From: Eledone cirrhosa
Lineage: Eukaryota
DNA: 64,000 nucleotides
NCBI GenBank assembly: GCA_964016885.1
Contig: OZ024750.1
Span: 32,798,001 to 32,862,000 of the forward strand
Reading direction: 5' to 3'
Shown here: positions 2,291 to 44,486 of the stretch, one piece after another
How the letters are laid out: each line of letters starts with the position of its first letter
How positions within the stretch are numbered: position 1 is the first letter of the stretch
The notes under the pieces: model-generated
Database searches by the model: none
What the model saw: only the letters and a program-made list of their open reading frames with translations
What the model was told of the DNA's origin: nothing
Program-made: the position numbers and the translations under genes

Positions 2291-2478
2291 TATTTAGGTT
2301 TGTTGGTTCACCACTGGATAGAACTGGTCATTCCATGTGGTCAACCTCAATGTAATATTATGGAGAGCACTCAATGTAATGCAACTCACCCGTCTTGTAG
2401 TTGGTGGTGCTAGTACGGAGTTAATTATTCTAAAATAACAGGAGGCTGGACTGGTGTACTTTCCTTAAAGGGTTTATT

Positions 2479-2536
2479 ATACTATAATCATTTCAATGAC
2501 CGGGTTCAGTATGAATCCTGTGACATCATCAGGTAT
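2479..2536 (-). ncRNA. hammerhead motif, inverted-arm copy
   Basis: Reverse complement of 2747-2804 with a few substitutions (stem III TGATTA). Confidence 0.65.
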
Positions 2537-2746
2537 TCAAAATATAACAAAGGAATATAATAGACAAAATCCATGGGGCTGAAAATCAGAGACGTGAGGT
2601 TGACCAAACTTATAGCAGCTTCTACCCCGGTCGGCCGCCCTCATGTGCATATAAGTATAGCAGCTTCTACCCCGGTCGGCCGCCCTCATGTCTCTGATTT
2701 TCAGCCCCATGGATTTTGTCTATTATATTCCTTTGTTATATTTCGA

Positions 2747-2804
2747 ATACCTGATGATGTCACAGGATTCATACTGAATCCGGTCATTGAAATGATCATA
2801 GTAT
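2747..2804 (+). ncRNA. minimal type I hammerhead ribozyme motif
   Basis: atac-CTGATGA-[tgtcacaGGATTCAtacTGAATCCggtcatt]-GAAA-TGATCA(palindrome)-TA-gtat; 4-bp stem I; AATAAA follows. Confidence 0.7.
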
Positions 2805-2874
2805 AATAAACCTTTTTAGGAATTACACCAGTCTAGCCTCCTGTTATTTTATAATATATATATAATATATATAT

Positions 2875-3268
2875 ATCATCATTCATCATTTCATTTTACG
2901 TCCACTTTTTCCCTGCTTGCAAGGGTGGGACAGGAACTGATTCTGGCTTGATTTCTACAGCTGGATGCCCTTCCTAACACCAACCTCATTTACAGTGAGT
3001 GCTGAGTGCTTTTTTTTATGTGGTGCCTACACATCCACTTTACAGTGAGTGCTGGGTGCTTTTTTGTCGTGGCACCTCCATGACGACTTTGCAGTGGAAT
3101 GATAGGGACCCCAGTCCCTATCATCTCATTTCTACAGCTGAGTAAACTGGAGCAATGTGAAATAAAGTGTCTTGCTCAAGGAAACAACACATCACCCGGT
3201 CTGAGAATTGAACTCACAACCTTTCGATTGCAAGGCCAATGCTCTAACCACTAAGCCATGTGCCTCCA
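2875..3268 (-). mobile_element. SINE family B (tRNA-derived head, RTE-type 3' tail)
   Basis: Minus strand GGAGGCACATGGCTTAGTGGTTAGAGC (A box) ... GAGTTCAATTC (B box) ... GGACGTAAAATGA(TGA)n; near-identical to the copies at 28776 and 31117. Confidence 0.9.
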
Positions 3269-3317
3269 TATATTATACTATATTATGTTATATATATATA
3301 TATATATATATATAACA

Positions 3318-3505
3318 TAATTGTTTCTACTTTAGGCACAAGGCCAGCAATTACCCAGTTCATTACTGGTACTTTATTTTATCGACCCCGTAAGGATGAA
3401 AGGAAAAGTCAACCTCGGCGGGATTTGAACTCAGATCGTAAAGGGACGTAACTATGCTGGAAAGCATGGCGTCCGACCCTCTACTGATACTGCCAATCCA
3501 CCACC
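3318..3505 (-). mobile_element. SINE family A (~185 bp, OR-type octopus SINE-like)
   Basis: GGTGGATTGGCAG...GAGTTCAAATCC (B box)...TTTCATCCTTACGGGGTCGATAAAATAAAGTACCAG...GAAACAATTAT; about 20 related copies in the window. Confidence 0.9.
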
Positions 3506-3829
3506 CTTTTATATATAACATAATATAGTATAATATAATAATATATGATATATGATAGTATAAGTTTTCTTTTAAGGAAGTAAAGGAAATTTGATTTTCC
3601 AATGGTCAGTAGATACTGTAAAGAAATGAAAACAAAACTTGTAATGAAATAACGATTGCCTTTGACTAGACCAAGCACAAGAACAATTCCTTAACCGATG
3701 TGGATATAATCTAAAAAAAGACTTCAGTCTATTGCCTTGCAGTCTTTTCTATTGATTTCTTGTATTGATTGATACAAGGCCACAGATTTGTAGGAATTCA
3801 GTATATCTTAAATGAAACTAACACCAACA

Positions 3830-41040: not shown

Positions 41041-41339
41041 ACTGATTTGTCTGTCAAGTCCCACCCAATCCTTGCTTACATGGAAAACAGATGTTAAATG
41101 ATTTTATATATACATGTGTGTGTGTGTGAGTGTGTGTGTGTGTGTGTGAGTATATGTGTGTGTGTGTGTGAGTGTGTGTGTGTGCGCGTGTGTGTGTGTG
41201 TGTGTGTGTGTGTGTGTGTGTGTGTGTGTGTGTGTGTGTGTGTGTGTGTGCGTGCCATGTAAAAATAAACACAAGTAACAAAGCAAACAACACAATAAAG
41301 AAATATATTAGTTTAACGCTTGAAATAATAGGAAAAGAG

Positions 41340-41375
41340 TCATTACGTTTCGGACACCAGTCGTTTATCAGAAGA
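41340..41375 (-). ncRNA. decayed minimal hammerhead motif
   Basis: tctt-CTGATAA-acGACtggtGTCc-GAAA-CG-TA-atga. Confidence 0.5.
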
Positions 41376-41959
41376 TAGAATCAGAAATAAAAGATGAAGA
41401 AATAGAAAGTTAAAGGGTGAGAAAAGGAACCAAAAAAAAAGAAAGAATTGAGAAAAGACACGTGCATATTTAGTCAATGATTTTGTGTGTACTTAAGTTT
41501 ATATATATTTGTGTGTGTGACTCCTGGGTTCAATCAGAGTTAACCACAGTTAGTACTCAATATATTAATAGAGTGTAAACATCAAGTTTAATATAGAAAT
41601 GGCTTTTACAGGACAGAGTAGAACATTCATTCAAAAGAAATAAAACAGTTCTAATCCTGTAGAAACCATTTATATATATATATATATATCAGGGGTCCGG
41701 TGAGTAAACAACATTTATGCTTTCATATATTTTTATATCTGTATATCTGTTTGATCCGAAATAGGAGATCGAATGTTCGCTGTGTGGATAATTAGTTTAA
41801 CCACCATGTGTGTTTGGCCTTTAACGTAAGTTGTAAGCTCTAATTCTTTTGAATTATTGAGCGCTTGCCTCACAATTCGAAAGTGTTTTTTCGTTATTTC
41901 ATAGGCTGAAATTCGATTCTCGCTAATTTTTACTTGTATATATATATATATATATATAT

Positions 41960-42667
41960 ATTAGAAAGGGAAGTTTTTTTACAAAATGGTAAAAAAAACG
42001 AGGTGTCCTACACGAGTGAAAGTATAAGGAAAAAAGATGAAATCAAAAATGCAACTGGAGTCTTTTTTTTTTAAATATATATTTATTTGGTTCCTTTACC
42101 AGTTTCGTAGTTCTTCTGCTTTTCAAAAGTAGAATTGAGATGGAGGGTTTGTGGTTTTTCTCATATTTGAAATGATAATGTTATTAAAAAATGAGAGGGA
42201 CAATTGTAATTTTGTAAATAAGTGTAAAAAATTTAAAAGAGTTGATAGGTGTTAAAAACGAAACGTTTAAAATTAAAATTAAAATCAAATGTTTGAATCG
42301 GGATGGAAGAAAATTTATTCAAACATTTGATTTTGATTTTAATTTTAAACCTTTCTTTTTTAACTCCTATCAACTCTTTTTAATTTTTTGCACTCAACAT
42401 TTGACAAGATGGATTTTAATAACACATCGAAACCGGTAATTTCTTCATGTACTTTATATACATCATAAACATTTGTTTAAAAAAGAATTGTCCCTCTCAT
42501 TTTTTAATAACATTATCTTTTTAATAACATTATCTTTTCAATAATGTCACTTTGACGAATCAAAAAAGAAAAACAGACCCTTAAATATATCTTCCATGCT
42601 ATTCCCAACTTCATCTTTTCTCTATATCCACTATTTTGTATAGAATCCTTACTTCCCTTTTCTAATA
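41960..42667. mobile_element. large imperfect fold-back insert in (TA)n with decayed hammerhead motifs
   Basis: Termini TATTAGAAAGGGAAGT / ACTTCCCTTTTCTAATA; inner arms 42176-42298 vs 42317-42518; GAAACTGGTA (minus, 42094-42129) and GAAACCGGTA (42429-42438). Confidence 0.65.
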
Positions 42668-42728
42668 TATATATATATATATACATACATTGAGAAATAA
42701 GCCAAACACTGCTAATAAGATCATATTT

Positions 42729-42788
42729 TAATTTACATGTGTTTCATCCTTAACATTAAGATCATAATATTAGCACTCATCAGAATTA
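42729..42788 (-). ncRNA. type I hammerhead motif, intact core
   Basis: TAATT-CTGATGA-gtgctaatatta..taatgttaaggat-GAAA-CACATG-TA-AATTA; GUA triplet. Confidence 0.72.
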
Positions 42789-43344
42789 CATAAGATATAG
42801 TTGTCATAAATATGACATTATGTACAAAAAATATATAACATACCGGTGTGTTTTTTTTTCTCAACATGAAATCATAATCTTTCATAGTAGGATTTCATAC
42901 TTTTCTATAAAATTGTGTGTAGCCTTGTGTATGTAAAAAATCCTATATTTTTCAGCTGTATAACTTCTTCACTTCTAATTATTTGCTTTCGTATTTGAAA
43001 TCATATTACTTTATACAATATATCTGTGTGTGTGTGCATAGCATACATATATATACATACACACACACATATAAATATATATATCATTCCACTGCTAAAT
43101 CTAAATTTCATGACGATCACTTGTCTATATAACATAAGTATTAAATTACCTTATGACAGTATTCACTACTCTTCATGTCTCAGTTAACATTGAATATATA
43201 CATAAAAACACAGATATTATATCTTGTGATTATTAATTATATTTATTTCCTGAACTAAATTGTCATGGTGAGCAATTGAAATTGATTTACTAATAGTTTT
43301 ACTCAGAGATTTAGTGGTTATAGTTTTCTACAGATCCTTCCTCC

Positions 43345-44185
43345 TCATCATCATCATCATCAGTATCAACACCATTTTATGTCTATTGTTCCGTGCTTGC
43401 ATGGGTTAGCTGGGCCCTTTTCAGTAAGGCATCTCTCCACTTTTCACATTCGTTTGTCATCGTTTCTGTGATTTTCAGTGATTTGTGATCAGCTCTCAAC
43501 ACTTCTATTCAGGTTTCCCTTCTATATGATGTTTAAAGTTTAAACATCATTAACTGTTTGACACTTGCATGGGTTAGACAGGTCCTTTTCAGTACAACAT
43601 CACTCCACTTGTCACATTCCTTTGTCATCTGTTCCATGATCTTTAGTAATCTGAGGTCAGCTCTCACCACATCTATCCAAGGCTTCCTTCTATATGATGT
43701 TTAAAGTTAAAACATATTTTATGTCTGTTGATCCACACTTGCATGGGTTGGACAAGTCCTTCTCAATACAACATCTCTCCACTTGTCACATTCCTTTGTC
43801 ATCTGTTCCATGATCTTTAGTAATCTGAGGTCAGCTCTCACCACATCTATCCAAGGCTTCCTTCTATATGATGTTTAAAGTTAAAACATATTTTATGTCT
43901 GTTGATCCACACTTGCATGGGTTGGACAAGTCCTTCTCAATACAACATCTCTCCACTTGTCACATTCCTTTGTCATCTGTTCCATGATCTTTAGTAATCT
44001 GAGGTCAGCTCTCACCACATCTATCCAAGGCTTCCTTCTATATGATGTTTAAAGTTAAAACATATTTTATGTCTGTTGATCCACACTTGCATGGGTTGGA
44101 CAAGTCCTTCTCAATACAACATCTCTCCACTTGTCATGTTCTTTTGTTAACTCCTCAATCTTTCTTCTATATGATATTTAAAATT
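43345..44185 (-). repeat. 174-bp tandem repeat built from an RTE 3' end
   Basis: ATCCACACTTGCATGGG at 43731, 43905 and 44079; contains the CCCATGCAAG tail motif on the minus strand. Confidence 0.88.
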
Positions 44186-44486
44186 AAAACAATATCAATA
44201 TGTTTCTCTGAATTAATATGGTCCCGTAACTGCTGTAGTAGCATACCTGGTAGAACCCATCCCTCCCCAGACCTGAATATAGCAGATTTCTTCCAGAGAA
44301 GGATAGAAAGTGAAAGAGATACACATGGAGTGAGTGACCTTACCCTTGGATATTTCTACCAAAGCTTTACTACAGTGTATATATATATATATATATAACA
44401 AAGAAGGTGTGGTAAGATACCATGTAGACTATAATGGAACTCAGCCGTCGGGGTCCTGACTCTTTTCCTGTATATATATATATAAG

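Follow-up and report, generated by a model that had tools for sequence, protein, structure and literature searches.

Abundant type I hammerhead ribozyme motifs in the Eledone cirrhosa genome and their likely place at the 3' ends of Penelope-like elements

A 64,000-nucleotide stretch of contig OZ024750.1 of Eledone cirrhosa (hereafter the window), within an assembly of 3.0 Gb, contains a series of hammerhead ribozyme motifs. An original prediction, made from the sequence, had read these as several unrelated families of short, non-coding fold-back elements of Penelope-like or retrozyme-like origin that favour TA repeats. Every motif site it listed was found where it had been placed, and families A to K, N and O can be distinguished in the window, which bears out the claim of several unrelated families. 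Five of the listed sites pass a strict descriptor of the complete hammerhead, and the remainder belong to real families, as degenerate, truncated or variant copies; the weaker window sites match intact hammerheads in other genomic copies. The window copies themselves are mostly dead stubs.

At the left of the window, a two-armed insertion of family A spans 2288–2855. Its long-end arm lies on the reverse strand and carries a hammerhead (2479–2536) plus a tail, and its short-end arm lies on the forward strand with a second hammerhead (2747–2804); the short and long ends are fixed 3' ends described below. Family K is represented by two degenerate copies on the reverse strand, a hammerhead at 10885–10927, whose intact relatives lie approximately 290 nt 3' of a Neptune-like GIY-YIG frame at locus L023, and a second at 12886–12923, which is 82% identical over 45 nt to intact copies. 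A forward-strand hammerhead at 15493–15571, with an 8-bp stem I, belongs to a B-like superfamily, and the family J hammerhead at 24514–24572 (forward) carries a G12A change, AAAA replacing GAAA, with intact copies elsewhere in the genome.

The densest cluster begins with a two-armed family B insertion (29126–29534), comprising a short reverse-strand arm with a hammerhead at 29171–29237 and a long forward-strand arm with a hammerhead at 29328–29394 plus the tail. Two-armed stubs of family C follow at 29626–29820, which is cut inside the hammerhead with the 3' half at 29777, and at 30250–30451, where 3' halves are seen at 30264 (reverse) and 30328 (forward); a very short two-armed remnant of the same family lies at 44398–44471. 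Between the two stubs lies a forward-strand copy of family O (29862–30224), whose hammerhead has a stem II of great length; the copy breaks off at the core and continues as an inverted tail. The stem II region of this family is about 115 nt, beyond the usual descriptors (30020–30160 in the window; loci L049, L118, L164 and L198), and the damaged copy at 30020–30160 was overlooked by the original prediction, as was the hammerhead at 15493–15571. A truncated forward-strand copy of family D (30473–30734) ends at its short end and contains a hammerhead at 30572–30659 with a U3-A8 core and a 10-nt palindromic stem III.

Further along, family E forms an old two-armed stub (35902–36072) with its core at 35999, and at its forward-strand hammerhead site (35996–36042) the inverted arm has replaced the 5' strand of stem I. 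Family F is a degenerate minimal hammerhead on the reverse strand (41340–41375) with a CG loop III and a broken C3-A8 core. A family G copy with a tail (41962–42162, reverse; hammerhead 42093–42130) and a two-armed family H copy (42165–42664; forward hammerhead 42397–42442) both have U3-A8 cores, and a reverse-strand family I copy (42690–43010; hammerhead 42729–42788) has an inverted, tail-only arm upstream. By eye, about 9 of the 16 window elements are two-armed; the fold-back description is right for these and not for the others. The expected TA preference was also seen, as a (TA)5+ run lies no more than 8 nt from an end in 11 of the 16 elements, whereas stretches up to 15 nt from such a run make up 4.8% of the window. 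Families F, J and N and both K copies are not at such runs.

The strict descriptor called for every core position to match, for stems I and II to be present and for stem III to be self-complementary. Its cut-offs were loosened post hoc, two stricter versions having given 0 and 1 sites; these failed on bulged stem II and G-U pairs, which they penalised. In its final form it found six sites in the window, the sixth being 15493–15571, against a mean of 0.01 and a maximum of 1 in 100 block-wise dinucleotide shuffles, a comparison that the original prediction had proposed. Applied unchanged to an independent sample of the genome totalling 400 kb, made up of 40 pieces of 10 kb at even spacing, it gave 36 matches against 0–1 per core type and shuffle in 10 shuffles. 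This corresponds to a density of about 90 hammerheads per Mb and a genome-wide estimate of approximately 190,000–370,000 (Poisson interval on 36, the true interval being wider owing to clustering). Exact matches to a B-like superfamily pattern number 75,198 genome-wide, those to the family D core pattern 5,607 and those to the family C pattern 1,901, while the reversed patterns gave 0 in each case; the sum of 82,706 is a floor for the genome. Stem II was left free in the B-like pattern, and 20 of the 26 distinct stem II sequences in the examined loci fold at z < -1. Additional families with other stem III palindromes are abundant in the 400 kb sample (L164–L203), in which the same TA tracts hold clusters of different hammerhead families. 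The motifs are real and very abundant in this genome, as had been proposed.

The Rfam scan suggested by the original prediction detected no hammerhead in the window, either at the gathering score or among the best 150 of 252 matches at E<=10; the matches listed were microsatellite-driven microRNA models and transfer RNA (tRNA)-like heads of short interspersed nuclear elements (SINEs). Comparison of a further 29 CUGANGA sites with the loci examined, which was not a dedicated scan, brought out no hammerhead family.

The core is of two types. The 400 kb sample contained 32 C3-G8 and 4 U3-A8 cores, with no C3-A8 or U3-G8. Among the copies examined, U3 occurs with A8 in families D (27/27), G (11/11), C (4/4) and H (2/2), and C3 with G8 in A (32/33), B (38/38), J (5/5) and K (12/12); these core-type counts used patterns anchored on family flanks, with overlapping loci dropped by context only. 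The 3-8 pair is thus kept Watson-Crick by families that switch both positions as a whole. The U3-A8 core of families C, D, G and H is a known family-wide variant, published for Schistosoma hammerheads (PMC4209133), and not decay. In family D the pair is present in 99 of the 100 copies listed, which may reflect descent alone in so young a family. In family C, position 7 is freely variable when the rest of the pattern is held fixed. Stem III of A, B, D, G, I and N folds as a duplex only (D -12.9, A -7.2 and B -2.2 kcal/mol), while that of family C folds alone (-6.5 kcal/mol) and is predicted to be stable as a monomer. Cleavage as a dimer is a prediction.

Following the long copies upstream, as the original prediction had recommended, led to frames for reverse transcriptase (RT) and GIY-YIG endonuclease in families B and C. 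Family B is young, with 24 of the 49 matches listed being 100% identical over all 146 nt. Its long copies consist of about 2 kb of AT-rich untranslated region (UTR) and then the RT and GIY-YIG frames, giving a full coding element of approximately 4.6 kb of the Hydra type, of which the window copy is the 3' end. At locus L156 a 750-aa open frame, frameshifted at its start, has the B hammerhead 2 kb downstream and a partial repeat plus an inverted copy upstream, and all 150 scored RT matches are 73–100% identical. The window copies of family C break off within stem II; at L219 a Hydra-type frame that is 42% identical to that of B over 401 aa sits between two hammerheads separated by 3,707 bp. 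The C frames at L219 and L216 are broken by frameshifts.

The motifs of these frames were compared with the Hydra clade of C-terminal-endonuclease Penelope-like elements, which includes Hydra-1_Obim of Octopus bimaculoides (Craig et al. 2021, PMC8557442). A DKT motif is present in L156 (B) and L219 (C), and a CxCX5C linker in 12 of 14 distinct B copies (the other two have F) and in L216. The RWK position reads RWR or RWH in B, RWR in C and RWK in a related frame at L041. The endonuclease lacks CCHH and, in an alignment judged by eye, has CxxC and CxH near the C-terminus, the C-terminal CxxC being mutated in L156 and intact in L042. B and C insertions show (TA)n targets, an inverted copy, a tail and a partial tandem. 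Pfam gave a weak RVT_1 match (E 0.0087, below the cut-off) in one of five Hydra-type frames and nothing in the other four, and protein atlas neighbours of the Hydra-type frame have GIY-YIG in part of their members. The DKT and CxCX5C motifs, the lack of CCHH and the (TA)n targets fit the clade of PMC8557442. B and C are, on the evidence of these frames, 5'-truncated ends of Hydra-type Penelope-like elements with RT and GIY-YIG in one frame, in agreement with the Penelope-like origin first proposed. Family K is probably the end of a Neptune-like element: loci L023 and L044 have, by eye, a CX2-5CxxC linker before a C-terminal GIY-YIG with CCHH, although the window copies are tied to these relatives by 82% identity over 45 nt.

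An intact 714-aa Hydra-type frame of another family was also seen on contig C3 (L041, 1687–3831); it begins just past the same terminal motif that is described below, and the long microsatellite-rich stretch downstream of it showed no hammerhead. Old internal duplications, 65–76% identical, were noted in long bodies of B (about 560 bp; L041–L044) and A (304 bp; L070–L084), and the bodies that hold them are non-coding.

Families A and D have no open reading frame (ORF). The A unit is approximately 2.1 kb long, and at L078 its tail continues into the start of the next unit; neither a Penelope-like frame nor a coding parent for A came to light in 15 loci that were extended and in three stretches of 10 kb. 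Family D consists of ORF-less tandem units of 591 nt, 98–100% identical, in which an 86-aa frame is the only one among frames screened at a length of at least 80 aa. Among the first 100 matches listed, D occupies 57 dispersed loci in the first 65 Mb of contig C1, 28 of which carry at least two cores. The longest arrays reach 9+2 full units, nine on one arm and two on the other at one contig C7 locus, and array-private variants are shared by the units of an array. Folded as a circle, the unit is 62% paired (z -5.7 against 30 shuffles). Family D meets, in its sequence, the description of a non-LTR (long terminal repeat) retrozyme (PMC7229834; bioRxiv 10.64898/2026.07.22.740005); we read it as a young 591-nt tandem retrozyme and the sole family fitting that term. 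A 621-nt contig from runs of unrecorded kind spans one D unit and fits a circle or an array equally.

The insertions share a distinctive anatomy. In each of families A to D the 3' end takes one of two fixed positions, about 80–165 nt apart, from which the sequence passes into (TA)n, and all of these ends lie 3' of the predicted hammerhead cut. In 55 of 59 divergent two-armed loci a short end is paired with a long end (A 7/10, B 15/15, C 26/27, D 7/7), and a short-short pair was never seen; the single C exception consists of two separate window insertions that had been paired, and some C long ends are alignment breaks at 99–109 instead of 126. Divergent pairs outnumber convergent ones by 27 to 4 among the first 100 matches listed, and all 11 two-armed D loci are divergent. 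The two arms at L043 (B), and likewise at L160 and L094 (D), do not contain one another. Read-through copies show the motif RCTC..GAGY starting within about 12 nt past all eight termini of A to D; for random positions the rate is 1.5%, and for positions inside D it is 4.4%. The motif was predicted for the C long end and subsequently found there (one copy), and a similar sequence precedes four other Hydra-type frames. The fold-backs as such are the known inverted-copy-plus-tail layout of Penelope-like insertions (PMC8557442).

Based on this, it seems likely that Penelope-like elements, some coding (B and C) and some ORF-less (A and D), carry the motifs as type I hammerheads at their 3' ends, and insertion by dual priming is proposed for them. 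The enzyme would nick a TA repeat on both strands, and reverse transcription would start at two internal RNA sites, one per strand. Both complementary DNAs (cDNAs) would in most cases terminate prematurely and be joined by their 5' ends, and the fold-back stubs would be what remains. The pairing of one short with one long end, the arms that are not nested and the motif at eight of eight termini suggest dual priming by shared Hydra enzymes. An enzyme dimer may read the duplicated RNA signal, the RCTC..GAGY hairpin, making one cDNA per site on opposite strands. Since the ends lie 3' of the predicted cut, the template would have been uncut or circular RNA. In tandem transcripts, hammerheads would associate by way of the palindromic stem III and release monomers; D monomers would circularise, giving arrays when copied round. 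Self-cleavage is a prediction for the motifs. A and D, which would use Hydra enzymes through the shared terminal signal, are likely to be copied by the enzymes of Hydra-type elements. The stronger proposal, that dual priming is obligatory for Hydra-type enzymes and that the same two signals let A and D hijack the machine, in a genome with about a quarter of a million hammerheads, we regard as evenly balanced. There is a precedent in the Poseidon element in vitro, in which the tail is delimited by two internal RT start sites and extension occurs on both strands of the target (PMC11167929).

Several observations weigh against this reading. In the same Poseidon system the start sites are the same on both strands, and insertion in vitro does not depend on the hammerhead, which itself requires protein (PMC11167929). 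Single-strand folds of A, B, N, I, J and G give no full hammerhead, which is expected for dimer-type motifs and lends no support to activity, and cleavage was seen in only 1 of 9 Xenopus dimers (Li et al., bioRxiv 10.64898/2026.07.22.740005). The Hydra assignment is drawn from motifs rather than a tree, and no coding frame is tied to families E, F, G, H, I, J, N or O. Three of the ten A pairs have intermediate ends, and two further D loci (contigs C11 and C28), outside the 59 counted, break the end rule. RCTC..GAGY was defined post hoc on seven termini, with no clear counterpart in G, I or K, and the loci examined are top BLAST matches, hence biased to young copies.

How the inverted arm arises could also be explained by snap-back, in which one cDNA folds and is copied, or by host repair that makes a palindrome, with no second RNA priming. 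Many short arms are indeed nested in the long arm, junctions often fall in hairpins such as stem II of family C, and the arms share private variants. However, the non-nested arms at L043, L160 and L094, which are not continuous parts of each other, are not explained by copying of one cDNA, and the second arm stops at a fixed internal site bearing its own terminal motif; we consider snap-back unlikely. Growth of the D arrays at the DNA level, by satellite-like unequal crossover, or from linear read-through RNA, in either case without circular RNA and with the hammerhead as a passenger, is a more serious contender, though still the less probable origin. The array-private variants fit either route, Li et al. 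2026 favour local tandem amplification (bioRxiv 10.64898/2026.07.22.740005), and the dispensability of the hammerhead in vitro (PMC11167929) points the same way. Against this, the arrays are dispersed, short and present on both arms, ending at fixed sites, the unit folds well as a circle, and the 3-8 pair is kept in nearly every D copy listed, with the reservation about descent given above.

Two broader alternatives fare worse. That all families are short, non-coding, independent ribozyme elements, or palindromes like the miniature inverted-repeat transposable elements (MITEs) of DNA transposons, is very improbable. A and D lack an ORF and eight window families are not tied to a coding frame, but the RT and GIY-YIG frames refute a short non-coding identity for B and C. 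The description given in the original prediction survives for D and in part for A, which is non-coding but 2.1 kb long, and fails for B and C as ends of coding elements. A MITE or other DNA transposon with terminal inverted repeats (TIRs) was rejected, as 5' ends and junctions are variable and 3' ends fixed, the arms are unequal, and equal TIRs with a fixed interior were not seen. Chance matches in AT-rich, repetitive DNA can be given next to no credence: Rfam reports no hammerhead in the window and the descriptor was tuned, but the shuffles of both the window and the 400 kb sample and the reversed-pattern counts rule this origin out, and the unconstrained stem II sequences mostly fold better than their shuffles.

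Compared with known systems, B and C resemble the Hydra clade (PMC8557442, which lists one octopus member) in their single RT-GIY-YIG frame, DKT, CxCX5C and (TA)n targets, and also in the inverted copy shortened at its 5' end, the one-sided tail and a canonical hammerhead close to the 3' end. They differ in being longer (about 4.6 and 3.7 kb versus generally <3 kb, with long 3' UTRs), in tails of about 80 nt versus the 30–40 described, in RWR/RWH in place of RWK and in the U3-A8 core of C; their hammerheads also differ from that listed for Hydra-1_Obim. Family D shares with metazoan non-LTR retrozymes (Cervera and de la Pena 2020, PMC7229834; Li, Clavereau and Pollet 2026, bioRxiv 10.64898/2026.07.22.740005) an ORF-less tandem unit with one type I hammerhead each, strong self-pairing and a genome with Penelope-like elements. 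Its 591 nt exceed the 170–400 of PMC7229834 and fall within the 51–972 of bioRxiv 10.64898/2026.07.22.740005, and it differs further in its U3-A8 core and in two-armed insertions of the Penelope type that stop at fixed ends, an anatomy not seen in the passages of these papers compared here.

Minimal hammerheads of Penelope-like elements, including the U3-A8 variant of Schistosoma mansoni (Cervera and de la Pena 2014, PMC4209133), likewise form many families, mostly of single truncated copies, with opposite-strand pairs 100–700 bp apart, palindromic stem III and U3-A8 covariation. That study counts about 2,000–9,000 per genome against the 82,706 exact matches and the estimated total of 190,000–370,000 here, a rough comparison given that the descriptors differ. 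Poseidon of Anolis carolinensis (Frangieh et al. 2024, PMC11167929) belongs to a different clade but is alike in its two internal start sites defining the tail, AT-rich targets, cleavage and extension of both strands and predicted dimer; no strand-specific choice of start is described there, whereas here one site is paired with the other. The main text of a 2026 Octopus vulgaris repeat annotation (PMC13282606) does not mention hammerhead, ribozyme or retrozyme. A literature search on cephalopod and Penelope hammerheads, twin priming and the tails of Hydra pseudo-LTRs, with most subscription papers outside it, returned no report of dual priming or of RCTC..GAGY.

The remainder of the window is rich in microsatellites and SINEs. 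A tRNA-headed SINE is very common (3201–3258, 17070–17416, 19708–19765, 28763–29085, 31101–31447 and 36578–36635) and often adjoins TA tracts holding hammerhead elements. Minisatellites with periods of 82, 48, 131, 174 and 48 lie at 3819–5513, 13670–14357, 19446–19958, 43374–44147 and 53998–54982, respectively, and some appear to be derived from SINE segments. An intact 995-aa frame of a long interspersed nuclear element (LINE) at 32651–35638 (reverse strand) encodes an endonuclease, an RT and a PHD-like finger, with broken relatives at 24760–26950; we take it to be of RTE type. A fragment at 59403–59816 has a reverse frame that seems similar to the C-terminal nuclease region of a site-specific LINE. 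Elsewhere in the genome, an intronless 450-aa frame on contig C18 (L029, 1810–3160), possibly a retrocopy, has motifs that we take to be those of an RNA 5-methylcytosine (m5C) methyltransferase.

These families are further representatives of known element types; their parts are known, and the finding is mostly an ordinary one. The density of about 90 hammerheads per Mb exceeds the published counts with which we compared it, in a genome where Rfam models detect none in the window. The link between animal retrozymes and Penelope-like enzymes consists, in the papers compared here, of co-occurrence and sequence trees, to which family D adds evidence from insertion sites that points to the Hydra clade. 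How tandem and inverted Penelope-like insertions form is described as open (PMC8557442), and the young, numerous copies found here give a countable end rule and a candidate recognition signal for Penelope-like insertion. If true, dual priming would explain both the fold-back and the one-sided tail of Penelope-like insertions.

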